A stretch of DNA of 62,847 nt, counting the filler, from Sphacelaria rigidula (lineage: Eukaryota), in the NCBI GenBank assembly GCA_964200075.2. It is 7 parts of 7 records of this genome, joined end to end, with 100 filler letters (N's around TTAATTAATTAA, not from the genome) between each part and the next. Parts side by side here need not be neighbours in the genome. Positions count along the whole stretch, not along the records: positions 17,987 to 26,879 come from CAXNAA020009820.1; 6 more parts are not named here. One strand, given 5' to 3'. Shown here piece after piece: positions 1 to 62,847 of this stretch. Every line of letters starts with the position of its first letter. The stretch's first letter is position 1. The notes below the pieces were generated by a model. The model was not told where the DNA came from, did no database searches, and worked only from the letters and a program-made list of their open reading frames with translations. The position numbers and the translations under genes were made by a program.

Positions 1-289
1 CGTGCGTGCAACATTTTCCGTGACCCTGCTGCACCCATATAAATCAAGTGATGGGAGAATCCAATTATGGATGTCATGAGTTCGAATCCCGACAGATTCT
101 CTTTTTTTTTCGTCCGTCGTTAAGGTCATACGTTATGCAGTGCATTTTTTCAAAAACATTTTTCATTCAGCGGCGGTGCCGTATGTTGCCAGATTGTTCT
201 GATGCTTACATCGGGTTCATGCGGGAAACTGGGGAAGCTGTGGTGTGAGCAAGTTTTAGCAGCTTTTACGCTGGCCGAGCTAGTAGTGT

Positions 290-2600
290 ATTCTAGCGCC
301 TTGTCTGTTTCTATAATATTTCTGGCGTTCCTACACTCCCCACAAAATCATCCGCGAACATCAATCCTGATACCGTATCTTCACCCACCTTGGCCCCTTG
401 CTTTGCTGCTTCTATTGCTATTATCAAGCCATTAAGTGACACCTTGAATAGAGTGGGCGATAACGTACATCCTTGTGCAACTTCTTGTAACATATCGAAG
501 TATTTCGATATTTCCCCGTCTAGCACCATAGAACTCTTGGCACATTCTGTCATCTATTTCACCTTTCTTCACACCTTTCCTCTGATCCCAGTTTCCCACA
601 ACTTTTTCCACAGCCCATTTCTCCACACTGTGCCAGAAGCCTTCTACACGTCCAGAAAGAAACAGTACGTTGTCAGCCCGGCGCCTTTCCTACCTTGAAT
701 AATCTCACCTAGTGTGTACACACGGTCTACGCAACGGTTTGGTCGAAATCCTGCTTGTCCCTCGCTGATTTTCCCGTCCTTTTCTAGCATCGCTCCCACT
801 CTATCGTTCAGAATCTCACAGAATGTTTTCCCTACCGTGCTCAGTGGCGTTATCCCTCTATAGTTTCGTGGGTCAGCCTTGTCTCCTTTTTTGAAAAGAT
901 CGACGACTACTTCTTCTCTCCACCTCTTGGGTGTGTACTCGTTTCCCCAGATCCAGTTGTACAGCATAGCCATCATGGTGATAATTCCTCCCCCCCCCCA
1001 CGCTTCAGAAATGCATTCTCTATTCCGTCTGCCCCTTTCGCCTTTCTGTTCTTGAGTTTAGCGACGCACTCTTTTTACTTCATCTCTGGAAAATTCTCTC
1101 TGCAATTCTTTCGAGCCAATATTCTCCCGTTTCGACGTCTCTACACTCGCCTCTGCCCACGCGTTGATTTCTTTTTTGAATTTCGTGTCGACGTTCGTCT
1201 TAGTTTTTGGTTTTCCTAGTTGACGGCAGTACTCCACCAGCACTTCTTCCTTCCCCTTCGAACTACAAACCATTTTACCGCTCGTGCCAGTAATGTGGCT
1301 GTCCCCTTGTCTATCTTTCCTGCCTGGTTTCTCATTTTCCCTTTCATTCCTACCCACATTTGTTTCATCCCGCCATCGAAATCTTCATTTGTTTCATTCA
1401 CTACACCTTCCCATACTCCCTTCTTTTCCCTGTCTATCATATTCTTCACTTCCTTTCAAGCTTTAGTATACAGTACTCCTCTCATCCTACCATAGTTTTA
1501 CTCGATATCTCGCGTGGGCCTCTCTCCTTACTCTTATAGCCTCTGTTACTTCCTCATCCCACCATTTTACTTATTTGTTGCAAAATATCAGTTTCCTCCC
1601 TATGGCTTTACTCGCTGCGTTCTTGACCAGCTGTTCCCATCCTTCTAAAATATTCGTTCCTGCCCGATTTCTTTCCATTTCAGTATCAACTCTACCTACG
1701 CGTTCCAACAGCTCGGACAATTTCACCGCATTTTTGGCCATCTCTTCTTGAAACTCCTACTGTTTTTCTTTCGTTTCTAGTACATCCATTCTCCATTTGT
1801 ACAACTTCCTACCCCGCCTATTTCTTTTAGCTCTCGTCTGTTGGCTTTCTGTCCATATTAGGCAATGACCTGTGGTTCCCATGTCCTCCGCGCATACATG
1901 TACTTGCATTTATCTACTGTTCCCATGTTCCACCACTATATAGTCAAGAACGGGGTGTTCTATCTTCCCTTTGCATTCCCTCGTCCATGTCCATTGCGCC
2001 TCTGGCTACAGTACTCTATCGTTCAGCGTCTTTATCTCGTTATTCTCAAGGACCTTTAGCATTTCTACCCCATTCGTGTTCCTTCCATCTTTCCCGTATT
2101 GACGAATGATATCATCCGGTTGACCTGCTCTTCCTACCCTTGCCTTAAAATCTCCCAATAACACCACTCCTTCTTGCCATTGTTACGTATGCACATCTGC
2201 TGCTATCTCTCCAAACCTTCGTTGTATATCGTTCACCCTACTCTTCGATGCTGGGGGCATATAGATGTTCCCTACGAAGAGGTCCTTTGTTCCCCCCTCT
2301 CCTGGTACCCTTATCCATGTGCTCCCGTCGAATTTCGTGTCTTTGATCACTTCAATGACGCCACACAGGTATTCCTTGATTTAGAACCCTACTCCCCCGC
2401 TCCCCTGCTCTTAGGGTTCTGTCCCTTCTCCTTTTCCCCTATCCATGCGTACTCTGCAACTCTGCATCCTATTTCCGCCCCTCTTTCTCCCATGACTCTT
2501 GGATTCCCACTATATCGAGGTCGCGTTCACTTACTTGTTATGCGATCTATATTTTTTTGCGCTCGTACGTGGCGAATGCACACACGTTCCACGATCTTAT
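290..2600 (-). mobile_element. Decayed non-LTR retrotransposon (LINE) ORF2: APE endonuclease plus reverse transcriptase, with frameshifts and stops
   Basis: Minus-strand motifs appear in the expected order: APE DLDIVGIQESWEK (~2490-2525), then RT WREEVVVDLFKKGDKADPRNYRGITPLS, QAGFR, CFFLDV, QGCTLSPTLF and LMFADD (~350). They are spread over several frames. Confidence 0.93.
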
Positions 2601-2879
2601 TCTCAACTTCCTTCCCGAATCATTATCTACTCTCCCTTTGGTTGCTGTCCTCTCTCCGTCGTTTTCATTTCTATTCTCCCTTGCTTTACTCTTCGTTCCG
2701 TTTCCGGTTTGGTCTTTGTCCAATTGCTTCGGGCCCCTATGTTCCCTACCCTTCCTCTTCCGGGCGCTTACTTGTTCCTGCTTCTCTTTTCCTCCGTTAC
2801 CCGTGGACTACGCCTTAGCCTCGCTGTTCCATTACTTATGCATACTCTCCATCGTACCCTTTTGACCCATGCCGACACC

Positions 2880-3480
2880 TTACTTGTCTCTATCATTTCC
2901 CACTCCTTGCTCGCGCTCTGTTTTAGCGTGACTCGGAGGTGTTCTCCCTCCCTTTCTGTTTTTTCCTCTTTCCAAACAGTATCGTCCTACTTCATTGCGG
3001 TTTCTTTGAAACTCTGTTCTCGTCATATCACTACGTACGCCGAATGACAGCACTACTGGTACTTTACCCGTCCACTCTTTACTTCTCCATCCGCTCTCCC
3101 ATACCGTCTCTCTCTCTATCTCTTTCGAGATCATCTCCAGATTGTTCCGTTTCAGGTATTGTAGTGGGATGTAGTCAAGATACTGAGATATCCCAGTCCT
3201 TGTACTTGTTGGGGGGTCTAGAGCCTTCGAGTTATTTTGCTGGCTTACCGACACTGAATAGTGCCTCCAACACGGGCTCGTAACCTGAAGCCAAGTTCAA
3301 CACCTTTGACGCAAGTACCCCACGTTTGCGCCAGGCGATCTTCATGGCAAACCATCCAGGCGTCCCACGATCGCATCCTGTGTCTTCTTGCCTCGGCGCT
3401 ATACTGGTTACTTTCCCCCAGGGAGGTCATTTTCATCGTGGAAGGTTCAAGGACGGCTTGCATAAGACAAGGTCTTACTC
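2880..3480 (-). pseudogene. Putative decayed LINE ORF1, possibly SGNH-esterase type
   Basis: Lies upstream of the APE-RT on the same strand. Degenerate blocks LGESN, PGANV, YIPLQY..RNNL and REGEHL resemble SGNH blocks GDS, PGA, GxND and DxxH but fall in different frames. Confidence 0.4.
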
Positions 3481-4074
3481 ACACATGGGGATGTCCCGCA
3501 CATCATTTCTTCCCACTCCGTGTACAGTTCACCATGGGTCGCTACTCCACTACTGCCTTCGAGTAGGCCTTCGCTGCCGAAAGCTTGGCCAACGACTCCC
3601 CCATACTTTGTACCAGCTTCTATCCTTCAGGATCTAAAGAAGTCCGCGTATCGCTTGGTGCTCTTTCTCGTAGGTCATGTGGTCGGTCATTGGTAAGGCG
3701 TTTGTTTCATGAGAGCAGTAGGTCTTGACGTTTATGTCGTGCATTATCCACCCCTTCCCTTCATTAGATGCCCTTTGCACCTGATATCGGAAATTTCAGG
3801 AAAATATCTGACCAGATTTCCACCGCCCAATGGAAACCGATAAGGTTTTACGCGTATCTCATCATGAGACACCGACCTCCATGTAAATTTTAACATGTCC
3901 GGGGTGATGATCCTACCCTCACCCTGTCCGTACTTGTTATATATTTTGTATTTTCGATTTGCATGTAAGGCGGTCAACCTTCATGCTATTACTTACATAT
4001 ATGGGTTTTGATTATATTCATGTCTTCCTTTGTTATAATATGAGGAGAAGAATATCGGTTGTCATCCGTTTTGA

Positions 4075-4460
4075 TATGGGAAAATACAGCTGTTTTTTCT
4101 CGCTATTTCCTGCCTATACCCGGGCTGTGTTCTGTTTAACGCAAGAAAAGACGGTTAGCTTCGTTATTTCATGTCTCTATCTGGGCTGTGTTATGGTAGG
4201 TTGACGAAAAAGGATGATTAGCTTCGTTATACAATGTGCATGTCCAGACTGTGTTAAGATAGATGAAGAAAAAGGATGGTTCGCTTCGTTATGTCATGTC
4301 TATATCCGGGCTGCGTGATGGTAACTTGAAGAAAAAGGATGGCTAGCTTCGTCATTCGATGTCTATGCCCGGGCTGTGTCATGTTGGGTTAAAGAAAGAA
4401 AATAAGAAAGAATGGGGAGCTTTGTCGTTTCATGTCCATGTCTGGGCTGTATTATGGTAG
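4075..4460. repeat. Degenerate tandem repeat, ~62-bp unit, ~6 copies
   Basis: A CCGGGCTGTG-like core recurs at ~4120, 4181, 4243, 4306, 4369 and 4442, with GAAAAAGGATGG(T/C)TAGCTTCGT-like sequence between cores. Confidence 0.85.
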
Positions 4461-5620
4461 CGGGGGAAAAAAAAGAGAAAGAAGAAAAGGACGGGAAGAA
4501 AAGAAGGAAGAAAACAAAGAAACTCAAGAGAGTAGGGGAGAGGAAGGGGGAAAAAATGAAAACTGGAGAAGATAAACGGTCACCTTTGTTATATCATGTC
4601 TATATCCATGTTTTGTTGTTTTGGGGGGAAACAAGATTGTTTCTTTGGATTGGTGCATATCCAGTGCGTCTGTCGGCCCGGGTGTCTAGCGGCGGTCTCT
4701 GGTATATGTACGGTGACAGTCTGTAGCTTTGATATCTAGATTCACCGACCCCTCCCTCACGAGATGGTGATTTGAACCCTGGTTCATCACACTACTCTCG
4801 TATTTGATCCTTATCCTGTAAGGGGCGTGCAGCACGGATTGAGAACGTGTGCAACAGCAACGCCAATTGAGATTGACGCGAGGTCCCTGCATCATCGACA
4901 AGTGATGTACCTGCGCTTTCATACTCCTCTGTCAGTTGTCACATTGTGGGTGCTGCTACACAAGCCTTCATTTGTGCGTGGGCACTCGGCCGCAATAGAG
5001 TTCTATGGTGTCGAGTGTTGCCATGCCCTTACTTTCCTTTTCCCCGGATGTTTTTTTTTTTTCGCAAACGTGCGGTAAAGTACACAGAAATGCGTAAGAA
5101 GCACTTCGAAGTATGATGTGAGTCACGCAAAAGCCACCGCGAATAGGAAAACCTGTGAGATCCAGACAGTTAAGGGTGATGCAGGCAACATCAACGACTA
5201 CCGCGCGGGTAACTCAGACCTTCTATAAACGCGAGTAGATTTGAAAAGTGTCCGCAAGTTACGCGGCAATTATTTTGTATGATCTCAGACGGTAACCTAA
5301 TGATGCACGTTCCCTTTGATTAAACTCTCTGAATCATGCGTGAACTGCACGGCTCCATGCTTGCCTTGCATATATATATATATATATATCCCCCTGTGCC
5401 CATCACGGCAAGGTTTTGGCAGCAGTCCAAGAGGGAAAGCTGGATGTGGGAGGGAATTCCCCTCAAAAGCTTTGTCTTGTGGCCATCTGCTACCACAACA
5501 TAGCGGTGAGCTGTAGCATCAGAAAAATAGCTTTTGTGAAGGAAGAGCAGAAGTAGTACGTACGACCAGCCGGTGGCCTCCAAACAACATTCGGCTACAC
5601 TTCACGCGGTTGAGTCTCTC

Positions 5621-5688
5621 GGGGGGGGGGGAGGGGTGTACTCATGATCATGCATGCCATAGTCAAAAGACCATTGACGGGGGAGAGG
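5621..5688. mobile_element. G-tract-anchored short repeat, type A, truncated copy
   Basis: G-run followed by TGTACTCATGATCATGCATGCCATAGTCA...CCATTGAC, then GGGGGAG again. Homologous to the copies at 7480, 19087, 24900 and 49229. Confidence 0.8.
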
Positions 5689-7464: not shown

Positions 7465-7530
7465 CCCCCCCAAACACCACACTGATCTGATGACTATGGC
7501 ATGCATGATCATACACCCCCCCAAACACCA
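7465..7530. mobile_element. G-tract-anchored short repeat: 36-nt insertion with a 15-bp direct duplication
   Basis: CCCCCCCAAACACCA occurs at 7465-7479 and 7516-7530. It flanks the reverse complement of the type A end (ATGACTATGGCATGCATGATCATACA). Confidence 0.8.
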
Positions 7531-15500: not shown

Positions 15501-17780
15501 CACAGGCTTCCCTCAACGAGCGCACGCACAGGTTGTAGCAGACTTCCTTCGACTGGTTCTGGTGTTGACGGCTCGAAACTGACAACTTCAAATCCTTCGA
15601 CTCCTACCCAGCCTGATCGCAGTCGATCTTCGCGTCACCCTTCTGCCACGAAACTACCCTGACATACTGCGGACAACACTCGTCCCCTCTCACATTTAGC
15701 AGCGCCCTTTCTACCGAGCTTGCCAGCGGACAATCCAAGAGTTTCGGCCAAGCATGCCCCGATGCTGACAACATCACCTCAACTGGACGCAGTTGCGGTT
15801 TCCCAAGAGTTTTTGGAAGTTCCCAGCCATTTGTCACGGCACGAAAGAAAGCCTCGTCGTCATGCTCCCAAGGTCGCGCGAGCATTAACACGCCCCCCTC
15901 CCGTCAGCGGAAAATTCCGACCTCATTCCCCCCCAAAAGCGGCGACTTTGAGCTCGACGACATTGCCAGGCATCCAAGAGGGATCCGAGTCGAACCTTTC
16001 AGACGGTACCGCATCCTCCCCTGATGGCCCCAGTGGCACTTCGCATCAATATATTTTTAATGATGACCCTTGTACTTCCAAACCAGTCATCTACGAGATT
16101 GATCAAAATCCTGATTCACGTTGCCCTTCACGATCGGATCAGACCCCCGCGCTGTCTACCGATACCTTTGAACCCCCCGCGGATCACCCGCCATCCGTTT
16201 TCACAGTCAGTCCGACTGATCCTGATCAATTTACGTCATCTGAACATGGCCCTGACCTCGTCGATGGTAAAGTATCCATCGATCCTGCCACCTTCACTAC
16301 CCGCGTAGCATTACACTGCGGTCCTTCCGCCACCACGCGCGCCAAGTGCGTCTCGTTGCTAGACAGCGGTAGTCCACAGACATTCATTAAAGAATCCATT
16401 TGGAATCATATGAAGCACACTAGCGCTGCTTCCGATGTTTGCGAAATCACTACCCAACCTCGCGTTTGGGGTGGTTTCGGCGACTCCAAAACACCCTTGA
16501 CGACACAGAAATCTGTTCGTCTTAGTGTGCAATTTTTCCACAATGATACACGTTCGGCTAGTCTCGCAGTCTGAGCTTACATTGTCCCTGACAGCACCAT
16601 GCATCATACTCTCCTTCTTGGCAGAGATAGCTACATGCGGTTCGACCAACGTACGTACCGCACCCTCCCACCATTATCGCCTCAGTCGGCGCCTCGTGAA
16701 GAACTTCAACTAGAACACTTTGGTACTCTCAGTGGCGCCTTAGCCTACAAAGAGAATGAGCAGGCTACCGGAGCGACCTACCATCTCCGGTACAATGGCA
16801 GTTCTGGCGTCACCCTTTCCGACGAGCCTCAACTCTTGAAAGTTTTGCTTGTTCGCCGCAACGGTATGCCTGCCCTCACCGGCCACTACCTTGCGACATT
16901 TCTGCCTAAAGTTGGTGCGCCCGCTGGCACTGAGCATTTTGTCTCCGACGGCGAACAACTCCTGCCTCTCACAGACCACGCTAATCTGGAACCTGGTGAT
17001 GTCTTGGGCATCGCCGCGGCTCCTCTTATGCACATTCCTCTGGATACCTGTGTAGCCGACCCTCCGGCGCCTGATCCCACGCCGCCGACTGATGGTGTTG
17101 TTCACTGCGTTGATGAGCCATACTTCGATCTATTCTCCTCACCCTCGACTCGGATTTCTGCGGTGGAATCCGACCGACCACCTGCTGAACCTCCTGATGA
17201 AGTGCTTCAACGCTTATCGGTCAAGTATCGGAAACATTTCCCACAAATGTGGCACCAACTTCCACCTCATTTGCATTATATCCATTTTGACCTACATGGT
17301 CCGGGCTGGGAGCCCGCCGTCATCCAAGAGCTACAAGATGTTCTCCTGGAATATCAGGGAAGATTTTCCCGATCCAAGACGGATCTCGGGCATTGTCAAA
17401 AATTGCCATTCGAGATCACTCTGCAACCTGGCGTTTCGCCAATCTCATCTCGACCATAGCGAACGAATCCCCTCCTCACCAAAAAACTCAATGCTATTTT
17501 GGATGAATACTTGGGAGCTGGTCTGATTCAACACTCGTCTACGCCATGGGCCTCACCCCTCGTGGTCATCCCGGAAAAAGATGGCAACATACGCATCATC
17601 GTGACCTACAAACGGCTGAACCGCGTCTCTGTCGTGGGAAAACTCCTGATACCACGCTTCGACGAAGTCTTCGACTCTCTCGGCGAAGGAAAAATATTCA
17701 TCACTTTCGATCTGGCCTCTGGTTTTTTCAAAAATGCAATTCACCCCGATACAGTTTCGTTGACGGCGTTCTGTACATCT
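12520..17780 (+). mobile_element. Decayed Ty3/Gypsy LTR retrotransposon (gag, protease, RT N-terminus), 3' part missing
   Basis: Zinc knuckle CINCNGTGHSMRDC (14845-14886), aspartic protease LLDSGSPQTFI (~16356), and RT PWASPLVVIPEKDGNIRIIVTYKRLN and FITFDLASGFF. Protease is followed by RT with no integrase between them. In-frame stops at 13528, 14548, 16574 and 17459. Confidence 0.93.
12737..13030 (+). repeat. 63-bp (21-aa) coding tandem repeat, 4-5 copies, at the gag N-terminus
   Basis: KISNMIAEALRARCVAKRTPF / KTPDMIAESLRVRSVADRPLF / KTSNMIAESLRARSVVKRTPS / RSSNISAESPRISTAVQRKPL. Confidence 0.9.
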
Positions 17781-19086: not shown

Positions 19087-19220
19087 GGGGGGGGTACTCA
19101 TGATCTTGCATACCATAGTCATATGACCATTGACCCCTCATCCGTACAAAGACAGAAGGGAGTACGCCGGGTTTACGCCTGACCAGGCTCGCAATCAATC
19201 ACCAAGCGCGAAGCGCCGTG
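19087..19220. mobile_element. G-tract-anchored short repeat, type A, near full length (~130 bp)
   Basis: G8 followed by TACTCATGATCTTGCATACCATAGTCATATGACCATTGACC...GACCAGGCTCGCAATCAATCACC...GAAGCGCCGT. Confidence 0.82.
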
Positions 19221-19988
19221 ATGTGTTCGGCGAGTCGCATAAAGAGTGAGCTGCATCCTGCTAAGATCGTTCGACCCGAAGCGTACTGATTATCTTACAT
19301 GTGGATGACAGCCTACAATGAGTTGCTTCATTTCTTCGTATCGCCACTTCCAGAGACAGTCATGGGTTCCACACTGCCTCCTGGGTGTCTCACCATTCAA
19401 ACATCACGTAGTGCAATCATTTCCTTTGCACGGAGTCTCCCACCCCGCACAGCATGATCTAGCTCGACCACAATCATAGTTATCGCAAAAATAACTGAGG
19501 CGCAAAAATAATCGGCAATCTGGTTGCCTAGCTTGCGTAGCGAGTGGCGTGTTTTTCAGCGTCGTTGCCACCCGACGCCAACCGCAGGGGGACTCAAGTG
19601 AAGGGGCGGGCGGTACTATCCAGGATAGGATTTCATGCGTGTGAAGACCATGAGGATCTTTCGATCTTATTTCAGTAACGTGCTCAGGCGTCAGTGCTAA
19701 CGCCTGAGCAAAGTAACAATCAATCGCATTTTTTTGTCCATCCCTGAGCAAGGGTAATGCGATCGCTTAGTCGCAGTACCATGTATACTGATTATCGGAT
19801 AGGCACTCAGCCCTGAGCACTCAATACGTGTTTTTTCACCTCCGTTCTCGGTACTGAAGATCGCTCTAGCTGACCTCGAAACACGGAAGGGCTCGAAGTC
19901 GGTGTCCCCCTCCTTCAGATAAGTCAAATCCTTATGAAAACTCCTTGTTCGTCGGCGGATGAGACAAATCTGGTACAACTTGGTACAG

Positions 19989-24884: not shown

Positions 24885-25095
24885 TATCAGGGGGAGAGGG
24901 GGGGGGTGTACTCATGATCATGCATGGCATAGTCATATGACCATAGACCTCGCATCCCTACAAAGCCGGGTTGGAGCACGCCGGGTTTTCGCCGGACCAG
25001 GCTCGTATCAGGGGGAGGGGGGGGGGGGGGTACTCATTTGTTGCTTGCCTCAGTCGTTTGACCATCGACCATGCATACCCCTTTCGAGACGGAAC
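24885..25095. mobile_element. Nested G-tract-anchored repeats: type A inserted in the G-run of a type B copy
   Basis: TATCAGGGGGAG is duplicated at 24885-24896 and 25006-25017, flanking a truncated type A copy. Type B follows. Confidence 0.8.
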
Positions 25096-26879
25096 ATCGT
25101 TCCTACTCCTAATAAGTGACACCTCCAACATTTGGGCGCTTATTACGCTTCTTCCTCACATTTCACAAAAACTCGTTCACACATCGTATCTCCGTCCTGT
25201 TTCGCCGTCTGTGGTCACCATGTACTCCTAGTATAGCGATCGTTTTCTCGCTACTATCTAAGGCATCAAACGATTTCATGCCACCTCTATTTACTTTTCA
25301 TATTTCCCTCTCCAACACGTCTTGTTCCTCCTTGTATAGTTTACATTATGCCACTCTATGAGTTCTACTCTCTATTGTTTTGCCATAGGGGTAATTATGT
25401 GCATCTACTTCCTCCTTCACTCGACTACTGGTATACCTCTTCATTCTTTTGGCAAGTCTACGTCTCCCACCTCTCAGGAGGGGAAAGGTACGAGGCCACC
25501 ACCCCCACCCCCGAACGCCATACCAACTCCAATATAAATCAATCGGATATTAAATCCTATACAACAGGGGGCGGTGTCGGAAGGGGGGTACTTCCCCTGA
25601 TGAGGGAGGGTGGCATACGACCCATCTATCCGTAGACTTTGAAAAAAAATGCGTAAAACTCATGAAAATAAAATAAGGCCGCGCTCCTTATGGCAAACAA
25701 AAAAGCCCTGTAACATTTCCTTTTGATCAGTTTTTGTCGTTTTACGCCCTTGAAGAGAGCTAGGCAGAGTTTGATAGCTTGGAACAACTTGCTCTACTCG
25801 TCGCGATGGTTCCAGGACATCTTCGTGTTTTCTGGTGGCCGCAGTCTTCATTTTGACCAAACTTTCATTCTTGTCGAAGAACGGTCAAGAGTGGTCAAAT
25901 CTAGAAAAACCTACCATTTTTCTCTGCACTTGGCCGTGGGAACAAAAATGCAAGTTTCGCAAGAATAAAAACTATGGCTACTGGAAAACGCGAAGATGTC
26001 CTGGAACTGTCTCACGAGAAGAGCAAATCATTTCAAGGTGACAAACTTCGCCGAGCTCTCTTCAAGGGCGTACAACGAAGGAGGGCTGAAAAAGATTTTG
26101 AAGAACCTTTTGTTTGTTTTCCATAAGGAGTGGCCCAAATAAATCAGTGAATAAAATAAAATAATACAAAATACAAGGTTCCCCTCCGGGAGGTTGGTAC
26201 TGGCCTCCCGGGGGTGACGCAAGTCGAAAATATAAAAATAAATGACTGGTATTCCTTTTCCATATTAAGGAGTCATTTGTGTGGGAGAATATGTACCTTC
26301 GAGGAGATACGGTCATATTCTGCAGTTTCGATTGTCTGAGACCAAGAGTGGAGATCATCGGTTGAAGAGGGGTGGGCACTTCCAGCATCAAGAGCTCGCT
26401 TCACGGGCGGTGTGCAGAGGTGGTAAAGCACGATCACGCACGAGACCCGTCACAGCACACATCGTAAGTGATTGATACTGAAAAAAAGTCGCGTCCCGGC
26501 AGTACACGGGTAGCTTGTGCAGGGTTATCTACATGCCAGCCCCACCCCGCGCGCACGGATTTCAAATCACACTTGGTAGACCTCAAGAAATGTACGTGAA
26601 CAATGATTGGTACTCGATTTACTTGATTTCAGCTTCTTTGAAGTACCTGCGTAGGGATGCATCCCTGCCACATGGACATTTACCAGTAGATCCTAGAAAA
26701 TGGTGTTCATACAAAATATGGGGTTGAAGTGGTATTTCTCTTTTGCAGGGAAGACGCGAAATACTTGCGTCCGAGCAAAGCAATCTTCTCCTCAAATGTC
26801 CGCAGCAGTTGAGCAGCTGTGGCTAGGTGCACCTAACGAATGCCGTGTACACGCGTGTCGATGACGATATCACCAGAGA

Positions 26880-26979: not shown

Positions 26980-28381
26980 TGATGCGCCCACATATCCCGT
27001 AAGGGGTAGACAGACACCCAGAATAAATGGGACGACAACACAACACACGACACACTCATGGCGTGTCTTAGCACACTTTGCACAAAAACACAAATGAACA
27101 AAAATCACCACCGTTAACCACCGCCCATCCTTGATTGAGTTGATCGCAAACTTGACGACAATATCAAGCCGGTGACAAGGTCTGTACATCACGAGAATAG
27201 CGTTTGCCAGCACAGCAGTATTCAGAACGTGGTTACATGAGAGCAGTTTGTACTAAAGTCAAGTCGAGTGACATTTGGGGGTTAATCTTTTCCCGACACG
27301 TTTTCGGACTTGGAACCAAGGTGTGCGTAGACGACAAGGTTTATATAAACTCGCCAAACGTTTGCAACAGAACGCTAAATAAAATACCCCGGCGTTGTGA
27401 ATGCCGCCTTGGAGACATAAGAGGCCATGTAATCCAAGAGTGGGAGTTTCACATAAGAGGGGACCTGAGGAAATGTTCGTACACAATGTTTGATGGGAAA
27501 CATAACGGAATGTTACAAACCAACACCAACCCTGACCTCAAGCCCAATTCAGGGCGCACGAGGCCCTCAGGCAAGGATGGTGCATAGATTCTCCCAGGCA
27601 AAGTGTGCGTTGGCAGACCTCATATCGTCGCCGCAGGCGCCGATTTCGACAGAGACACGTTGTGGACGAGCTGGGTCCTCACCTCCCAAACTAAAAATCT
27701 TCCTAGAACTTTTTCGAGCCCAAAATCAAGTAGTCATGCTTGTCAGCCATTGTGTACGAGCATTTCTTCAGGTCTACTTTCAAGTATCACCATACGACTG
27801 GTTCCCGCCTGGGGAGGGAGGAGGGTGATGAACGCCAAAGCAGGAGTAAACTCTGCCCTTCCCCATCTCGTGCCACCTGATTTTTTTTCAAAGCGTCGAT
27901 ACTCATTTCCTCCTTGTATACGTCACCTACTTCAATCATTTCCACAGCCGGCCACACGCACTGCATGCTGTTTCTTGACCCGGAAGAGATGTGGTTCAAG
28001 TATGCAGTGTCCAGGCCGAGACTTTTCCCGGCAATATTTGTCGTCATCTTTAATAAAAAAAATCAGAGGTTTTCAACCCTCAGACCGCGGTGCGGGTATT
28101 CCACGTAAATCACGCATATTTTCTTCGAGTGAATCTTGACGGCGATTCAGCAGGGGACCTACCATCGCGGCCAAAGGAGTGAACCGTGATGAGATATCGC
28201 CCAAAATAAGTGCGTTCATGAGCGTTTTCAAAAAATGAATCTCGACCCTCCTTCTCAGAAATGTAACCCTTCTAGAAATATATGAGGGGTAGCTAGGAGG
28301 GCACCCGAAAACCACGGTTCATACCTCCATTTTTTTTCACCTCCAACCTCTGTTCTAAAGTTATCTAAGACAGAAACCCAC

Positions 28382-31300
28382 CTCTCCAGACCCCCGGCAG
28401 GTAGGACACGTGGTCTGTGTTTGGAAGGCGCCAAGAGGGGTTCGCGTAGCCTGGATGACCACACCCTGGCCTCCGCACTGGCCACAGGTCTTCGCCGACG
28501 AGCCCGGCTTAACACCACTGCCGCTGCACGTGTTGCAGCCCTCCAAGTGCCGGATGCGTACCTTTTCTTCGCCACCGAAACAAGCGGTCTTGAAGTCAAG
28601 GTCCAGATCCACCCGAAGATCGTCCCCTATCATCGAAAGAGAGAGAGACAAGAGGGAAGAGAGAGGAGAGGAGGATGGCGATAGCAGTGATGAAAGTACG
28701 GGCCCGTGAGCGCCCCCCATTCAACCCTCAGATCGCAAGGGTACGTACGTCACCTGCTGAATCGGGATCAATCATCACTTGAAAAGAGTATGCGTCATCC
28801 AGATGGACTACCCGCCCCGCCGTCCAAGGGCTAAGTTATCTAGTCAGAACACTCTTGGGGCATGAATATGTTACAAAAGACGATAAGGGCGGAGTTGAGC
28901 ATCCGAATCCCAACACACATGACAATTTTCTTTCACGGGTATCTGATTTCTGTCGTTGAGCATGAAAGCGATGTTAGTAAGAAGGAAGCTGAGACGAGAA
29001 TCGCTGCGGTGAAGGAGTTTAAGAGTGTTAGTCAAGTCTTACCCTGTGACACCATGATGCGAGGCACGTATCGGGGGGAGGAGACGGGCAGATTGCATAA
29101 GACTACAGGCCTCGTACCAGGGAGAGGGACGAAGGAGGGAGGATATGACTAGGACGAAAGAAACGAGTATCGTCGGTTGTACGAGGAATATCACTCGGGC
29201 CGATCTGAAAATCCCATTTCGATTTTTTCCATTCAAAATACGTAACACTCACAGGACACTTTCTACTATAGCCCCCCCCCCCCACCCCCCCGAAAAAAAC
29301 AGTGGTCGGTTTGGGCGGGCGATATCAATGAGTAAATATATATGAAGAAAAGTCGAGGACAACGAGCAGCTGGGAATTCCAAGGCTTGGGTTTGTTGTCG
29401 CCAATATCGTCCATATGAGGCGCTTCATGCAGCCTGAAACCAAATATGGGACGCTGTTGTAAGACCATGTCGTGCGTGGATGTTTTTTCTTTTGGGGGGG
29501 GGGGTATCGTATACAAGGACTCAAATATGACATACTTGAGATGAAGGCGGGGGAGGGGGGTGAAGAGAGACAGCGGGGGGAAAACGGATGAGGCGTAAAA
29601 GATGGGCAGATACTATGATACGTGAGACGGTTAACCTCACCTCGCATGGGGCCGCGCCGTTGCTGCTGGCGGCCACCCCCGCCCATGCCACCTCCCCCAA
29701 AGAAGCTGTCGAAGATATCCGACAGGTCAACTTGCTGATTGGCGTCAATACAGATGCCGTGGCGGCAAAAGGAACACAGGGTCGAGAGCGCGCGGGAGGA
29801 GGGAGTTTCACGGATTTCAGTGAACGAGAGAAATGAATGTTCACCGCAAGCACAACGGGATTATTTTGGGGGTAGCGCCGTAAAAAACAAGTATTTTAAT
29901 GCTTTGCGACCGATACTGCGCGGCTCACACTCCAGGGACTTGACCATTCGATTGGGGCTACATTGCTGTACAGAATTCGAGCACCTCGACTCCTTTAGAA
30001 ATCATGTAGACGGCAAGCCACTGAACAGAAGGAGGCAAACCAGGACGATGAATGTTTTACCTCTTTACACTCTACACGCATTCGATTAATTTTTCACCCA
30101 TGCGAGCGGGTCTATTTAGAGCATTGTGTAAGTTCACATTCATCTCCACGGACAGCCTTTGCGATACAAAAGAAGATAGACGGTTTTCATCTCGATTAGG
30201 TCGACGACATCGACTTTTAGTAAGGGTGTCTCTACACATTAGACACGCGCCTTGAAAGCCTCCGATCGCCAAAAGCGAGGCCGTACCGGTGTCATCATTC
30301 GTTCATAACATCAGGACGGGGCATTTTTGGTATATACTGTAAGGGTGCGTCGTCCAAATTGAGAAAGTATGACAAAAACCAGCATCTCATCAACCTGGAT
30401 CGATGTTGCTCTACCTCATGTGAGAGGTGTCACGAGAGGGATGCATGAGATAATTTCGAGGCTTTTCACTCAAGGACCTCCTCGATGAAAAAATCGAACA
30501 CTGGACTCAAGATTACAATGTCGAAAATTGTACTGAGTACAGTATGAAATCTTGTGTCCCTTGCAATAGACGCAACAGTCGATACCGTAAACGCAGTACA
30601 CTTTTCGGCGATGTAACCTCTTGTCCAGCGTGTGGAAAAAAGAACATCTGCGCTCAAGTGTGATTTAAGACAAATCTTGGCCACACAAGTGCGCCCCACT
30701 CATGTCCTGGAATCATCCGACCATCAACAGGCGAAGACGTGCGTATTGACCGTAGAAAACTGCCCCCTCCCCTCCTTTGTCAGATAGACCTCGACGAGTG
30801 TACAACGTCACGACAAAATTCGCAGCCACCATTCTGTTGCCATACGACATTACGGCCGACATCCTGGCAACTCTCTGGATATTCTACAACGCTACACAGC
30901 GCCCACGTGGGATATAGTTGGACAGGAAGGCAGATTAATGTTAATTCGGACTTCGTGCTGGCGAAACTCTACGCCAAATACCCTGGCTAGCAGGGGTATG
31001 ATGATTGTGATCTTATCACAAGGACACCGTAAACTCTGCAGGCATGGGGTTCGCTATGACAAGCACCCATCAGTCCGCCCAGTTTGCACGGACGACCAAC
31101 GCAAAGTTTGAGCCGTACCACATGACGCCGGAGGTTCCATCGGAGATCCCCATGGAACGCTGTGCGTCGAATTTCCTCCATGACCCCGAAAGACTATCTT
31201 CACTTCCGACACACTATTTCCTCAACACATGTAGCCGTTTAGTTCGGAAAGTACTCGGCACTGGTTGCCATTGTGATTAGACCCACGGTCGCTACGAGGT

Positions 31301-34188
31301 AGGTATGAGATATCCGCTACAGACACAGAAACCTGAGCAACTCTTCGATTGCGACTGGTGATCTGTGTGCCCATCCATGTACAGGCTCATCATACCGCTT
31401 GGGCAATATCGGTGTCACCGGCAGTTTTCATATCGAGGTTTCAGAGACAGGTCCTGACATCTTGAAGAGTTTTTTTTTTCATTTTGATTATTTTATTTGC
31501 CGAGTGAGGTCAATTTGGTTGCATTTTTGAATATATATATCTGCCCTCATCTCCGTAAAAAAAAGAACAGTCATGACTTTCAAGAGTTCGCTTAAAATAT
31601 CGTTTGAAGATTGTCAGCCCCTCATCATCGTATCTTAGACGAAAAAAACGATCATTTGTGCATCGTAAGGGCTTCGTGATTTCCATACGGGATCATGGAA
31701 AACGTTCTCTCGGACATTCGTTGTCGGCATAGTTTCCAAACGACGACGAGTACGGTGTCGAGACATGTATCGTTGTTTTCGCATTGGTGGCAGCAACGAG
31801 CACGCCAAATCTGAGGCCATTCGCCCAGGCTCTGACTTATGTGATTCCTGTCATCAATCCGTCCTCAACTGACGCCATCAATTACTATGGGGTATGATGG
31901 CACAGAGCGAAATAATGCGAGTGCCCAAACGACCCATGACACAAGGCGGCGCGCTTCGATGCCATTTTAAGAGAGCAGGGCAGCTATTCTTCTTGCTACG
32001 TTTCGCTGCTGCTCGAGCTATTTTACGCGGGGACGTTACATCAGGTCAAGCCTGTTTGCCCATCGGTTGAGTGTCGTGACTTTGCCCCTTTTTCCCGATA
32101 ACCCTGCAGCGACCATCTCCACATGCCGAGAGAGCAAGATGTGTATATATCATACACGCTGCCAAACCTGCATTTCATCCCACACCCATCCCGACAACGG
32201 GTATTGGTTCGATGCGTGGGTTGGGTGAGAAATTGATTGAAAATACCACAAATATAGCGCTACATGTAGATCACGGACCGACAAAAGGTGGCAAAAATCA
32301 ATGGCCGGCACCGGTCAGAGGTTGGATTTACTTTTGTTACTCGATGGACGGGGCCGGCCAACAGCAAGAAACTTCGCGTGGTGGCTGGAAGCAGATCTTC
32401 GACTATGGACAAGGATACACTGACCAACCCCAGAGCCAACTCACCTCGAAGCCCGATCCACCCCCCATACCAGACACGCCTGCCTCTCCAAATTGATCGT
32501 AGCGGGATCGCTTATCGTCGTCACTGAGTACCTGGAAATGCGGCGAAAATAAAGCCGATTGGCGGTGTTGTTAGGACCAGCGTGACGCAAGGTACGGATT
32601 ATGACGCTCTCGATGACTGTACATCATCTCCAAATGTAAATCTTCTCGAAGACTGCGGTACCGTAACCTCGAGAGTTACATGATTGAAAAGCTGCCGCTG
32701 AGCTCCTTCAATGCACTGTTGTGAACATTCAGTTGGAAACACCGAGGCAAGGGTGGGTTGGGTTCTCGTCACCGACCGCTTCGTCTCGACCACGCTATGT
32801 TGCGGGAATGATAAAGTCTCGAAAGGGTGCACTGACTGCAGCTCTACCCTCTCGGCGTACGGTTTGGACAGGAGCCAGCGCATGATTGAACCAGTTCGCT
32901 GGCTTGCAAACGTTCGCACAGCAAGCAGTGACAATGCCAGGACAGAGTGTGTGTGCAATAATGACGGATTAATCCTTGGAACGTCCACATGATGCGAAAT
33001 TCTTCGTAGGGAGTGTAACGGCGGGCGGTCGATTCTTCCTCGTGTTGACACCATCTCGAACTGGGGGGGCGAGTTTTACTGCGTGTTGCTTCATGTGCCA
33101 ATGCCTCACATTTGTTGATTCGGTACAAGTGCAGTGTTGGTTAGTCAGGCGCAAACAAAACATGAATACAGGCAGAACAGTGTTACATGACTCCCCCTCC
33201 CCCCGAAGTCACAAAAATCCGATGAGACATGTTCACGTCTCTGGTATCTGAATCTCCGAGATCCTTGCGGAGCACACGGCATGAAATAGCATGGCGTAGA
33301 GAATCTTCCATCCTGCCATCCTCAATTGATTCATAGTAACGCAGACTGCAAAAATAGCCCCCATCTACAATTCCATGACAAATCCACATGTGCTGGAGCA
33401 ACGACGTTGGCATTGCCTTGCAGTATACAACCTGCGTCAGGCATGCTAGAAAGGAGTGCCTACAGTTGTTGTTGCGGGTACAGCACGACACACAACACAG
33501 TAAACTTCATTACCGTCAAACAGTTTGGAGACCGTACGCTGTTGAAATCAGTAATATCATCAAGCCCAAGACAACAGTAACAAACCCCACCGACTCCATA
33601 AAACGCATTCATACGAGCTGCAGAAACATCCCACCTCAACTCCAGCCCAATACACGAGCACATAGATACTGACACGTGGGAAGCACGCACCCCTACACCC
33701 CTCCTGTGGCCCGTACTCACCGAGTACGCAGTACTGATCTCATTAAACTTCTCCTGCGCATCGGGCGCATCGTTCACATCTGGATGATACTGTCGCGCCA
33801 GCTTCCTAAACGCGCTCTTCAGCTCCGATTTCGACGCACTTCTCCCAACTCCCAGCGTATCGTAGTAATCAGCGGCCATCCTGACCATGCGCGATGATCT
33901 ACTTCTCGCCCTAGTGGACACCCTTGTCCCCCACGAACCGCCAGGCGATATCACCACTCCTCCATGACGCGGGGTATTAGGCCTAAATGGTCGGTTGACA
34001 TTGTTCACAGCACTTCGGTCGACTGATTGGCTCGAACCCCCAGCGCCGGTGCCGGTGCCCCCTCCCCACGTAGAGACGAAGGCTGGTTGATGTCTGCGGG
34101 AGCTGTATGGGGATCCGGTGCGAGCGGCCGCAGTGTCGAGACCCTGGCAGCACAGCAGGCCTAGGAGCGTAGCCTGTGTCAACTGCAT
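28382..34188 (-). CDS. dnaJ: Type I DnaJ/Hsp40 chaperone with an N-terminal presequence (probably plastid); 3' partial
   Basis: Four phase-compatible GT-AG exons. 34188-33721: ~105-aa presequence plus J-domain DYYDTLGV...YHPDVN. 32531-32445: [18 protein letters not shown]. 29734-29641: G/F region [11 protein letters not shown]. 28626-28382: GDDLRVDL and three CxxCxGxG repeats. Confidence 0.95.
29263..29512. mobile_element. Probable MITE with C-rich TIRs in a DnaJ intron
   Basis: TACTATAGCCCCCCCCC...GAAAAAA at the left end and TTTTTTCTTTGGGGGGGGGGGGTATCGTA at the right end. Confidence 0.5.
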
Positions 34189-44964: not shown

Positions 44965-45038
44965 CCCCCCCTCCCCCCCAGGATATTGATGGATTGAGTC
45001 ATGATTCAATCCATCAATATCCTGGGGGGGAGGGGGGG
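44965..45038. repeat. Near-perfect 74-bp palindrome at a contig start
   Basis: CCCCCCCTCCCCCCCAGGATATTGATGGATTGAGTCA|TGATTCAATCCATCAATATCCTGGGGGGGAGGGGGGG, with one mismatch. Confidence 0.92.
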
Positions 45039-48199: not shown

Positions 48200-51100
48200 C
48201 AGGTTTTGTTTCCACGTTCTCTGAGCGTGGACGAAGTGGATGGTATATACGACGATAGTGTGGCACTTGCTGTAACTGTTTCCAGTGCACGTCCACATAT
48301 CGTAGGGAAACCCCACCGTGAAGTGGATATTAGCTTTTCCCACGTTTCCCTTGCCCATACCAATGAAACCTGTGGATAGCAACTGCCGAGCGACGAGTAA
48401 TCACGCTGACCTAAACGCTGTTACCATGCTCTGGATGTTTGGAGGCGCTAGGGGCGGAGGGCTGATATCCCACGGTGTCTGAGGTTGCGGGCGACGACCG
48501 TCCTCGGCACGGGTCACCTTGACCTCACCGGACCACATCCTCGCACCCTGGCAGGTTCAATCCGCATGCTGGCGTGCGTTGGCAGCAAATCGCGGTTTAT
48601 ACTGCTCTACGGTTTCTCGCGTACGGTCGATACGCTCGCGAATGTGAAGCGATACATCGCTGAGGTGAGCGTGGTAGGTGCGCCGAGATGCTTCAGGATG
48701 GATGATGACGACGGGTTCACCTTTGTGGCATTCGCCACTGCCCCCCGGCACCCCCAAACATGACGCTGCCGTTAAGAATGCGATCTGGCGCGTGATGATG
48801 TGAGGAGGAAGCAGCACAACGGGAGGCGCTTCGTCTTCTTCCGGACGCCGGCATCGGAGGCATTTCTCACCTGGGCAGGAATCTGAAACGCCTATGATTG
48901 GAGCCAGCGGTCTGGGCAGCGGACAGAGTCAACCACTCGGCAACAACTGCCAACCCACGGAAGACATCACCATATCAGGTCTTCATCGGGAAGGACCCGC
49001 CCGTGCAGATAGTACCGTTTTTGCAACCCGACATGATGCGGGTTAACCGCCGACACAAGTCGGAGGTGCAGTCTGTTGCATGCGACTACCTTAATAATGG
49101 CAGCAATCACTCATCATCGACAGTCGAAGTGGTGAAGGCTGTAACCGGAGCGGTATGCTACACAAATAACGTCGTGTGGACAGTCCCGTGTATACCGCTG
49201 TAATCAGCAGCGACGCCGCTCGCCTGGCGGTGTACTCATGACCTTGCATGCAATATCATATGGTATTGACCTCGCATCCCTTCAAGGCCGGGACGGAGCA
49301 CGCCTAGTTTTCCGCCGGACCAGGCTCGCAATTAAACACCGAGCATGAAGCGCCGTTGGGGGAGGGTGGCGTACCCATTTGTTGCTTGCCTTAGTCGTCG
49401 AACCATTGACCACTAAGGCAAGCAACAAATGGGTACGCCCCACCCCCCTCAACGGCGCTTCATGCTCGGTGATTAATTGCGAGCCTGGTCCGGCGGAAAC
49501 TAGGCGTGCTCCGTCCCGGCTTTATAGGGATGCGAGGTCATGAAGCGCCGTTGGTGAGGTTGGGGGGGAGGGCGAATGGTGATATTGCCGTCGATTCACC
49601 GCCGACACCACACCCACCGCCGCTAGCGATGCATCACTCAAAAGTATTGGAAATTCAGCAGCCACCGCCACCGTCGCAGCCGATTCAGCAGCAACTCCCG
49701 CCGCAGCCGATTTATCAACAACCGCCGCCGCCGTGTACGCCGTCGAAGCCGATCCAGTAGCAACTCCCGCCGCCGACTATGACGATACATCAGACGCCGC
49801 TGCTGCCGTCGACGCTGCATAATTATCCCCTGGTGTTTGAGCCTCTGGACTTTCCATCGACAGCACCCTCTATATTTACCAGCTCTCTGGGGCCCTCGCC
49901 GATACCATCAGCGGCTTTTCTCAACAGCGCATTCATCATCCGCTTCTGGGTCACTAAGCCATTTCCTATCGCCTCTCCCAATGAAAGTGAGGACAGAGCT
50001 GGACGTGTAGGCCGATCCCCGTAGCCTGGACGCACGCGTTCGAGGTCCGTGGGGTACAATCCTGGAATCAATCCGACAACAGGGCTCTCATGCACCAACG
50101 CATGGGACTCATGAAGCAGATGGACAAGCAGTCTTTTCTGTCTGCTCTCCTCACGCGTGGACAAAGGTGTCGGATCAAGGAGGCGCGGGGGTATACCGAT
50201 CCGGCACGCAACAGGCCTGGCGACTCACGAAGATATCAAAGCTGCCCTGCGTGAGCAGCACCCGCCGCACGATCCACCTGAGCTTTTGCAATGCCCAGCA
50301 AGGACTCGGAAGTCCCGAACGGTTACATGCGAGCAGTGTCTTGTTGTGCTGTTTGTGTTTGTGTTTGTTTGTTGTTGCTGTTCTTGTTGTGGTCGTTGCT
50401 TCCCTTCTTCTTTCCTTTCTGTGGCTGTTGCTTCTGTCTCTTGCTGTTTCTCTCCTGTTTTTCTTCTCCTTATTCTGTTCCTGTTTGCTGCTCCTGACCA
50501 CGGGCTGGATTGTTGCAATCAGCTAGTGTGAGATGATCAATCAGTCATTCAATCAGTGTGCTTGGAGTACGGCGAGCTTTGGGAGGACTCTATCGCGCGC
50601 CAATGGCATGGTATTGTGTATGCGGGGACCATCGATACGGCTTGGTAGCAACCAGTGGACATGATATCCAAGCTAAGCGGGTATTCAGCTTGAGGGTAGA
50701 CGAGTTAGGCTAGCCGACAAAAATGAGGTCAAGACTAATAGGAACAGAAGACATGCGGAGAGCACATGCAACTTTTGAAGAAGAGAACTGTATGCCCCCA
50801 CCGTAGCCGTTTCTAATGTACGTTTATTGGCGGCTATGGCTTATGAACAGAACCTTGCATTGCGTCATTTTGATGTTGAACAGGCTTTCGTACAGTCTGA
50901 GTTGGATGAGGACGTATCTAAGCGCTTGCCGCCTGGTTGTGGTAGCCTGTCTGGTGAGACGGTGAGATTGAATCGTTCTCTGTACAGATTAAAAAACAAG
51001 CATCTAGGCAATGGCATAACCATTTGGCAAAATGCTTTATTTTTCCAGGATTTGACCAATGCTTGACGGGTTCATGTATATTTCGATTGATTGAGAATAG

Positions 51101-54637: not shown

Positions 54638-54666
54638 CCCCCCCCCCCTTCATGAGTACACCCCCT
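54638..54666. mobile_element. Minimal remnant of the G-tract-anchored repeat
   Basis: TCATGAGTACA, the reverse complement of the fixed end TGTACTCATGA, sits between two C-runs. Confidence 0.5.
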
Positions 54667-61450: not shown

Positions 61451-62746
61451 GTAAGCAACGTTACACTTCACTCCGAAACCAGCGTGTTGGTTGGGTGCAT
61501 TGGTTCTGGAGTCGACAAGGTAAATTTTGTACGTGAGTGAAAAAGTGACCTCATTGTCGCCTGCATTGTATCATCCAGGTTAGCAAATGTTACGCCGCTT
61601 GTACCGAGTAGATCGTGTGATGTTTGGGCGCGTAAGCGTTTCGATGGTTCATTCTACTCAATCACTTTCAGGCGAGTAGAGTCGCGCTAGCTGGCACGGT
61701 GACCTTCAGGTAGGAAAACGTGCGCCAGCTGCGACAATCGTGTGCGCGGTGGCGCACCACATTTGGGTTGCCGGCGAAGCGTTTGACCTTGACGCTATGC
61801 TGTCTTGCGTGTGTATGCGTACCCTTTTTTCGTGCTGCTTTCAAGCGGTTGGATGTCGTCAACAGGCTGGGCATGAACCTCGCTCGAAAATTCAACATAT
61901 CTTGGTAATGTTAACATCCAGAAATGACATTCCGTACTCGTGAACCGTTCATCTCCACAGGAGTTTTATTGTCGTGCTTCCTTGAACCCTTCAAATGAAG
62001 GTGTGCGCCGAGCGACAATATTAACCGGAGCAAGTGCAGGGAGGGAGAGTCTTGGCAGAGGACTGGGCCCTCGAGATCCACGCCAGACGCTACATCGCAC
62101 ATTGGCGTTCTACGCCCAATCTCGGAGACTGCGAGTAAGTTTCCGCTCCTTATATCTCACGTCAGCGGATACGCCAAGGTTTGCATTGCGAAGACTGCGT
62201 TTTCCTCCCGTTATTGTGATGTTGATGTCGAGGAATGAACGAGCACAGTTTGGGATATCAGACGAGAGTGTCTTTTCGATTGTGGGTAAATATCCAAACC
62301 GACATACTTGGGAGCACTCGGAATGGGTAACGGGTTATACACGGTGATGGCGTTCTAGTGGCTTGACGATAATTTTTTGTCCCGAGGTTCCGTTTCGGTC
62401 TACTTGTTTAGTTTCTCGTCGCCATTTGTAAAGCTTCGTAGGAGTGTCACTAGGCGCTTTTGTCGTCTTTTTCGTCAACGGGATTTTTAAAATAATGATG
62501 TAAGACTCAACGCCAGTCTGCAGCACCTATCGGAAATGCAATGATAACCGTTGTCGGGGCATCATGTAGAGTTGTGAACTGGTTTGGCTAACCGGGTAAC
62601 TGCTTGCCAAAAATTACAACCAGCTCCAGCTATCAGTTGAAACTGGATAACTGGCAGAGAAGCCACCTCGGGACTCCGCCAGCGTCGCCTAGCACGGCAG
62701 CTCGGCGAAATCGCGTAAACGCCCCCCCCCGGCTGTGTAATGTATG

Positions 62747-62802
62747 GAAGAAACGTAATGTGCATTTGAAGAAACGCAATGTGCATTTGAAGAAACGTAA
62801 TG
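62747..62802. repeat. 21-bp tandem repeat, ~2.7 copies
   Basis: GAAGAAACG(T/C)AATGTGCATTT is repeated. Confidence 0.9.
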
Positions 62803-62847
62803 AGCGCCAGAATGTTGGAGGTGTCTCTATTAGGGGTAGGAACGGTG

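Follow-up and report, generated by a model that had tools for sequence, protein, structure and literature searches.

Two related repeats, which we refer to as types A and B, occur throughout the DNA analyzed here, a stretch of 62,847 nucleotides (hereafter the window) that consists of seven Sphacelaria rigidula contigs of ~9 kb joined by N-linkers; the source assembly comprises 244 Mb in 27,214 contigs. Type B represents the 3'-terminal part of a LINE of ~5.7 kb with an open reading frame for an AP-type endonuclease and a reverse transcriptase, and type A is, as far as its sequence tells, a ~560-bp non-coding, non-autonomous passenger of that LINE. Very probably, B belongs with the autonomous LINEs that carry the label RTE-X in Ectocarpus, A travels with it as a non-autonomous passenger, and both insert by target-primed reverse transcription at C/G tracts. 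The original prediction had described a short, unrecognized family; it proved to be the ends of a LINE and its passenger, and matching families are annotated in Ectocarpus.

When B was traced outward from its constant end through copies in the genome, it extended into a reading frame on the opposite strand that encodes both an endonuclease and a reverse transcriptase, so that the RT-encoding element with the same end, which the original prediction had proposed to look for, was found. The frame matched the Pfam families RVT_1 (E 1.9e-24) and Exo_endo_phos (PF03372, E 1.8e-8, above cut-off in locus L117). A consensus built from piled-up copies contains, with frameshifts remaining, an N-terminal region, the endonuclease, a reverse transcriptase bearing the motifs QG and FADD and, C-terminally, a Cys/His motif, and its stop codon lies ~5 nt ahead of the C-run. 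The 5' UTR holds an array of 63-bp repeats, and the 5' end, seen in four loci, immediately follows C-rich sequence. Eight positions that are catalytic in AP endonucleases are each retained in 22-27 of 30 B copies. B combines the features of a LINE of the AP-endonuclease type: a non-LTR-type reverse transcriptase, an endonuclease N-terminal to it, a fixed 3' end with variable 5' truncation, and target site duplications (TSDs) of variable length.

Copies of B range from 26 to 3713 nt, most being 80-92% identical to the consensus. No intact B frame was found in the loci examined, in which the longest open frames over the endonuclease or reverse transcriptase were 211-308 aa and the longest frame listed was 627 aa. 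A protein search nevertheless returned an intact single-ORF relative of 1360 aa (P0002) that is 72-86% identical to B and has the same C-terminal residues. Compared with solved structures, P0002 was closest to L1 ORF2p (E 7e-21) and R2; its 10 matches were all L1 or R2 proteins, and no telomerase was among them. Among the protein matches listed, those from Ectocarpus sp. CCAP 1310/34 were 41-58% identical to B, and named Ectocarpus sp. proteins were 42-58% identical to its reverse transcriptase. In a tree of 30 sequences (B and 29 picked by hand from the 120 matches listed, drawn without clade labels or Repbase references), B grouped with five proteins of this Ectocarpus strain and four unnamed ones, with support of 100/98. 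These nearest named relatives of the retroelement point to a brown alga as the probable host. The region ahead of the endonuclease is also conserved (window 2900-3200, minus strand; P0002 residues 8-100), occurs in distant relatives such as P0016 and looks RRM-like by eye; the N-terminal ~90 residues of the frame matched no Pfam family, and a match in the Atlas reached only 0.78. At one locus (L008, G000:C14266), a B-then-A nest lies in reversed orientation inside an older relative of the same LINE, diverged to 74-79%, pointing to what may be at least two LINE subfamilies.

These results do not bear out the analogy, drawn in the original prediction, to endonuclease-deficient Penelope/Athena elements, since B has a LINE-type reverse transcriptase behind an AP endonuclease with intact catalytic residues. 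No GIY-YIG domain was among the Pfam matches to E 1 for the B and P0002 frames, and B lacks the marks of a Penelope-like element, namely a GIY-YIG endonuclease or none, and a telomerase-related reverse transcriptase. The sizes first given, ~130 bp for A and ~65 bp for B, were also too small: full-length A is 563 nt and full-length B ~5.7 kb, the A copy at 19087 measures 498 nt, and the B copy at the site under study 441 nt. The description of the family as non-coding holds for A and fails for B, which is the end of an endonuclease-RT frame.

We derived the A consensus of 563 nt from 30 long copies. A 48-nt GC-rich direct repeat, R, occupies positions 1-48 and 466-513 (24956-25003 in the copy at the site), giving the layout R-unique-R-tail. 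The last 52 nt of A are 85% identical to those of B. Positions 63-103 (41 nt) match the 5' head of B at 80-85%, and in four loci the matched sequence opens the B 5' UTR after a C-rich stretch. Since A shares both the head and the tail of the LINE, it would have been built from the two, with other sequence between them and R in addition. In agreement with the original prediction, four patterns for Pol III A and B boxes found none in the A consensus, and without a Pol III promoter A is not a SINE in the strict sense. When Rfam searches were extended to E 5 for three loci that contain long A copies, they gave nothing relevant and one chance match, the window had no Rfam match at the gathering threshold and no tRNA by ARAGORN, and inspection of R by eye revealed no fit to a hammerhead or HDV-like ribozyme.

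Many A copies have their 5' end where one or the other R copy begins. Among 59 A copies outside the first 30 loci, a set that favors long copies, 14 started at positions 1-5, 12 at 47-74, 6 at 461-469 (the second R) and 10 at 515-527. A promoter or processing site within R is the likeliest cause of these starts. B has a 5'-end hot spot of its own: outside the first 30 loci, 8 of 64 copies, and 8 of the 19 shorter than 200 nt, break off at a distance of 60-73 nt from the end; this accounts for the '65 bp type B' of the original prediction. The hot spot lies at the 3' foot of a predicted hairpin and would fit stalling of the reverse transcriptase there. In stringent-type LINE/SINE pairs, the reverse transcriptase recognizes a conserved 3' stem-loop. 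The 3' hairpin, of 11 pairs, is compatible with 91% of cells across 60 ends of A and B; covariation lent it no support (60 of 500 shuffles scored as high), and RNAalifold predicted no pairs.

In the window, copies were confirmed at all seven positions at which they had been predicted, in four of the seven contigs, and the stubs at 7465 and 54638 were seen directly. As predicted, one end is constant and abuts a G-run (a C-run in the sense of the element) everywhere except at 49229. Three features had been overlooked: a third, diverged copy of the target at the site under study (25472-25483), a 4.4-kb B copy (284-4722) and a B copy at the window edge (62734-62847). The coordinates are collected in Table 1.

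Table 1. Copies of the LINE (B) and its passenger (A) in the window, with the structure of the nested site at 24885-25095 and its flank. Positions count along the window.
Feature	Position	Strand	Remarks
Near-complete LINE copy (5' UTR, N-terminal region, AP endonuclease, RT)	284..4722	-	Stops and frameshifts; without ~60 nt of the 5' end and the last 1.27 kb
63-bp tandem array within LINE 5' UTR	4107..4397	-	Found by TRF; common to L112, L152 and other copies
A stub, 43 nt, both sides C-rich	5636..5678	-	
A stub, 36 nt, small deletion, flanked by two copies of a 15-bp C-rich TSD	7480..7515	+	
B stub, 66 nt, contig edge	17996..18061	-	95%
A copy, 498 nt (consensus 54-561), without first R repeat	19094..19591	-	87%
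Target copy 3 (downstream-side TSD of the A insertion)	24885..24896	-	12-mer identical to 25006-25017
C-rich run, 3' end of A copy	24897..24905	-	
A, 100-nt 3' portion of the non-autonomous element (563 nt in full): LINE-like 3' end preceded by internal repeat R	24906..25005	-	95% to A consensus 464-563
Target copy 2 (upstream-side TSD of A, also downstream TSD of B)	25006..25017	-	
C-run, 3' end of B copy	25018..25030	-	G14 at 25017-25030
B, 5'-truncated 441-nt LINE 3' end (end of EN-RT ORF, stop codon, few-nt 3' UTR)	25030..25471	-	86% to B consensus 4634-5072; frame established from relatives
Target copy 1 (presumed diverged upstream TSD of B)	25472..25483	-	9/12 identical to copies 2 and 3
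Inverted pair (palindrome) of a B-then-A nest, center near 49410	49230..49540	.	90.6% over 276 nt to its own reverse complement
Family 3' end, 12 nt, between two C-runs	54650..54661	+	
B copy following a C9 run, internal 21-bp tandem triplication, ended by window edge	62734..62847	+	

At the site under study, the predicted 12-bp direct repeat, TATCAGGGGGAG, is exact on the two sides of the 100-nt A copy. The nesting that had been proposed was also right, in that the A copy adjoins the G-run of the B copy. Microhomology of ATCA at the truncated junction, which had been proposed as well, is possible only: relative to the A consensus it is 1-2 nt out of register (in the sense of the element, ...TGATTG-CGAG in the consensus vs ...TGATA-CGAG in the window). 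Target copy 1 matches copy 3 at 12 of 15 positions when the 3-nt overlap at the junction is counted. The simplest history suggested by this arrangement is that B inserted first and A later entered the downstream TSD of B, because B is 86% identical to its consensus and has a diverged TSD, and A is 95% identical with an exact TSD.

We next turn to the family at large. The sample comprised 185 loci and the window, with 363 distinct matches, of which 197 had a 3' end with enough flank, 196 were free of N's and 175 had both flanks. The 185 loci partly overlap and were mostly picked by similarity, which biases them to longer and composite copies and, except for the first 30, leaves flank composition unbiased. 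Genome searches returned 3,512 first-look candidates with the site itself and 5,196 and 3,030 with the far parts of A and B, 40 being scored in each of the last two. An unselected sample consisted of 20 evenly spaced 10-kb stretches (200 kb, from contigs >14 kb) and the window; its own figures for copy number and nesting rest on 14-15 ends. Extrapolating from 15 family 3' ends in 200 kb gives ~18,000 genome-wide. The predicted pattern of one fixed end and one variably truncated end was recovered, in that 23 of 29 unselected matches lay within 10 nt of the fixed end and the other end was reached in 2 of 15 A matches. Contigs of three runs presumed to be RNA displayed the same profile as a run of unspecified kind that holds much of the window, a likeness that says nothing of transcription or RNA ends; their loose ends on the 3' side were G-runs followed by varied sequence.

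The 3' flanks are rich in C. The first base is C in 88% of 196 copies, and 178 of the 196 have at least 6 C's among the first 10 nt. The original prediction was of a 3' end rich in C, not A, and with no A-tail, and A6 was indeed present in just 3 of 196 flanks, compared to a background of 1.9%. The C-runs are mostly short and interrupted: the pure run is at most 10 nt in 176 copies and at least 17 nt in 10, and 8 of the 196 ends continue as (CA)n. On the 5' side, C reaches 63% at ~9 nt from the junction, compared to a background of 25%. A C5 run lies within 25 nt of the 5' end in 67 of 128 non-nested copies, compared to 2.1% for the background, and a G5 run on that side occurs in 1 of the 128. 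Because a tail cannot be added on the 5' side, the C-tract there pre-existed the insertion, which upholds the prediction that the elements enter pre-existing C/G tracts. Such targets are plentiful: the 200-kb sample contains 48 C8 runs, and just 4 of these adjoin a family end.

An excess of TSDs, the absence of which would have spoken against retroposition, was observed. Exact informative TSDs of 8-21 bp flank 14 of 175 copies, compared to 1.6 +/- 1.3 (maximum 8) in 200 shuffles, and with mismatches tolerated the count was 27 of 175 compared to 2-9 in six shuffles. A TSD was detectable in 24 of 175 copies, some of these at chance level, and detection climbed with the identity of the copy to its consensus, from 2 of 25 through 6 of 64 to 16 of 86 in the class of at least 90% identity. 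TSDs made of C alone cannot be scored, and those made mostly of C are invisible to the test. The low fraction may therefore reflect a limit of the test, or many insertions may have no TSD. Together with the fixed 3' end and the 5' truncation, the TSD excess agrees with the original claim of a retroposon moved by target-primed reverse transcription.

The many copies without a TSD raise the question of whether the same LINE and passenger insert mostly without the endonuclease. In that case, which carries the idea of the original prediction over to a LINE, the reverse transcriptase would be primed by G-rich 3' ends left where G-tracts or G-quadruplex sites had already broken. Consistent with such a route, 70 of the 86 least diverged copies have no detected TSD, most copies are C-rich on both sides, and stubs of 12-45 nt, as well as the inverted nest at 49230-49540, are common products of repair-like events. 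The inverted nest itself either arose by fold-back during insertion or repair or is an assembly artefact. The endonuclease has however kept its catalytic residues, the duplications exceed those in shuffles, become more frequent with copy identity and reach 15-21 bp, and the shortfall is explicable by duplications of C alone, which escape scoring. We therefore regard predominantly endonuclease-independent insertion as unlikely, and favor endonuclease-dependent target-primed reverse transcription at C/G tracts.

A related question is the source of the C's. In copies resolved by a TSD, 0-17 nt of extra C-rich sequence separate the end of the element from the duplication, so that much of the apparent 'tail' is duplicated target. 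A true untemplated poly(C) tail, added to the RNA after transcription in place of poly(A), would explain the near absence of A-tails (3 of 196), the 3-17 extra C-rich nt that precede the duplication in L041, L104, L170, L082, L051 and L010, and the pure runs of at least 17 nt after 10 of 196 ends. It would not explain why most runs are short and interrupted (at most 10 pure C's in 176 of 196), why in L040, L028, L021, L014 and L019 the C-run downstream does not exceed that of the target in length, or why 8 of 196 ends continue as (CA)n, as would be expected if the run were copied from flanking DNA. We accordingly consider a poly(C) tail of this kind quite improbable, and return to C's supplied by the DNA that flanks the copies.

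Copies are nested far more often than expected. Among 93 copies in loci that had not been selected for composites, 18 have the 3' end of another copy within 50 nt on their upstream side, as do 2 of 14 in the evenly spaced stretches, compared to 0.2% expected by chance, amounting to about 100-fold self-nesting. In the first 30 loci, which a composite query had retrieved, the count was 39 of 72; among the copies of the window it was 2 of 8. Insertions of A and B into one another's tails cover all four possible orders. This last observation bears on whether A, the G-run and B form a single composite element or an old tandem duplication, with the 12-bp repeat internal to it and not a TSD. The top 30 genome matches to the site are indeed mostly B-then-A (29 among 72 copies) and the 5' ends of A cluster at one point; that top-30 set, however, had been selected with a composite as query, no two loci have the same spacer between B and A, all four orders occur, and the 12-mer is particular to the site. 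The composite alternative is thus largely refuted and retains very little probability, leaving successive insertion of separate elements.

Comparison with known systems favors a LINE of a kind that has been described before. RTEX-1_Ec32 and RTEX-2_Ec32 of Ectocarpus are listed as 5.5-5.9 kb with a 'single EN-RT ORF; (C)n 3'', a 'C-rich' TSD and thousands of copies (PMC12477816, Supplementary Material 3). B resembles them in its length of ~5.7 kb, in its C-rich 3' end and target, and in the grouping of its reverse transcriptase with Ectocarpus sp. proteins; a single EN-RT frame is seen in the relative P0002, the local copies being broken. It differs in that its copies are older and have no intact ORF, and in its 63-bp array and C-terminal Cys/His motif, which do not appear in the table rows consulted for RTEX (PMC12477816). 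The counterpart of A would be RTEX-N1_Ec32, a non-autonomous element of 607 bp with a 60-bp 3' end 83% identical to RTEX-1/2, weak homology to the RTEX-2 5' end and >6,000 copies, which 'can be present in tandem'; RTEX-N2_Ec32 is 188 bp long and has its last 100 bp in common with N1 (PMC12477816). A likewise measures ~600 bp (563 vs 607), shares a 3' end with its LINE (52 nt at 85% vs 60 bp at 83%), has weak homology to the LINE head, occurs in tandem and has a C-rich TSD, and the 100-bp portion shared by N1 and N2 has the length of the short form of A. Neither repeat R nor the clustering of 5' ends there figures in the table rows consulted for N1 and N2 (PMC12477816). RTEX-N1 is probably the older 'Sower' repeat, given their respective totals of 2.48 Mb and ~2.5 Mb (PMC12477816, PMC3145265).

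The match between A/B and the RTEX families, a comparison of descriptions rather than of sequences, appears to agree on every testable feature. Membership in RTE-X would follow from the labels in PMC12477816 through this feature-by-feature correspondence, and the pair, which bears an endonuclease, appears to join a brown-algal LINE and passenger already annotated and not to form a new family. The discovery is in that respect modest: the C-tailed RTE-X LINE and its passenger were known in Ectocarpus from a supplementary table only, the term 'C-rich' occurring there and being absent from the main text of PMC12477816 as accessed, and the pair is now found to be abundant in another genome. What is added is a measured anatomy, comprising the target C-tracts on the 5' side, the self-nesting, the 5'-end hot spots and the common LINE head.

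RTE-clade LINEs and SINEs with microsatellite 3' ends are also comparable, having no poly(A) and a repeated 3' base that matches the first base of the TSD; their repeats are T- or A-rich, such as (GTT)n or (CAA)n, in contrast to C here (PMC6007223). Ectocarpus RTE-1 and RTE-2 likewise differ in their (CAA)n ends and in their length of 4.0-4.6 kb (PMC12477816). Chlamys elements, which are Penelope-like, share the bias to (C)n/(CA)n targets and insertion in tandem (PMC8557442), a case of convergence. B is distinguished from Athena and Chlamys by its AP endonuclease (not GIY-YIG or none), its LINE-type reverse transcriptase, its TSDs and by having no pseudo-LTR that we could see.

The direct repeat of A and the (C)n/(CA)n targets had raised a Penelope/Chlamys origin as a candidate, which was dropped once B was recognized as an AP-endonuclease LINE. 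A narrower version, in which a Chlamys-type element and not the LINE moves A, could be framed around the layout R-unique-R-tail, the 48-nt repeat resembling a pseudo-LTR with a tail, the preference of Chlamys for (C)n and (CA)n targets (PMC8557442) and its presence in Ectocarpus (PMC12477816). Yet the last 52 nt and the 5' head of A match the LINE, ends, targets and nesting are alike in A and B, A copies have LINE-like TSDs of 12-21 bp, and the annotation of Chlamys-1 from Ectocarpus gives it an (A)n 3' end (PMC12477816). Mobilization of A by Chlamys is hence hardly credible, and we retain the LINE as the source of its machinery.

Taken together, the findings discussed above are consistent with the following series of events. 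The LINE protein would bind the common 3' end of either RNA, as the sequence shared by A and B suggests. The endonuclease would then nick the G-rich strand at a C/G tract, in keeping with the target bias observed. The G-rich 3'-OH so released could pair with C residues at the 3' end of the RNA and prime reverse transcription, in line with the pairing of 3' repeats with the nicked strand proposed for RTE-type LINEs (PMC6007223). Synthesis would mostly end early, giving the 5' truncation observed, and a staggered second nick would duplicate ~9-21 bp, much of it C, as observed in a minority of copies. Since copies lie upstream of C-tracts, read-through transcripts could carry templated C's, and no poly(C) polymerase would be needed. 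Each insertion leaves a fresh C-tract, so that later copies land in the tails of earlier ones, as observed.

A bolder reading, which we consider rather doubtful, is that retrotransposition in this brown-algal LINE lineage has exchanged its usual reliance on A/T for one on C/G. G-rich primers generated by the AP endonuclease (or mostly by spontaneous breaks in G-tracts or quadruplexes) would pair with C-ended, non-polyadenylated RNA, and R would be a self-contained module, either an internal promoter or a self-cleaving RNA, that sets the 5' end, such that R and the LINE tail would make up a minimal retroposon of 100 nt with no Pol III promoter. A literature search covering few subscription papers and not Repbase returned no mechanistic account of C-tailed LINEs. 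A LINE that targets and primes on C/G tracts offers a way to tell whether insertion sites are set by tail-target pairing or by the specificity of the endonuclease, and an AP endonuclease preferring G/C would be of interest to retrotransposon biochemists.

Several other features of the window were observed. An open frame at ~7009-7482 (plus strand), with the 36-nt A stub lying in the C-run at its end, presumably resembles the C-terminal part of a different, RTE-type LINE; it had no Pfam match and was unrelated to the B protein by BLASTP. Long frames at 12521-17526 (plus strand) have protease-like (LLDSGSP) and pre-RT motifs that suggest the decayed gag/pol of an LTR retrotransposon; a tandem array of 63/126 bp accompanies them at 12732-12997, and the interval 16575-17456 had no Pfam match. 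An exon of a DnaJ-family gene with a signal- or transit-like N-terminal sequence lies at 33460-34191 (minus strand; Pfam PF00226, E 1e-18), and what resembles a later exon is present at 29249-29860. Other short segments bounded by C- or G-runs, neither A nor B, occur at 11269-11485, 29272-29504 and 44965-45039, and may represent further families associated with C-tracts; a short palindrome lies between C and G runs at 44980-45023. Long inverted repeats of MITE-like or fold-back form are present at 46226-46567, 52081-52371, 28077-28830 (arms 74-83%) and 25737-26078 (72%), and tandem arrays at 8306-8705 (82-bp unit) and 45154-45850 (three copies of ~263 bp). Finally, a pair of dispersed repeats at 6870-6969 and 41715-41814 is 82% identical over 100 nt.
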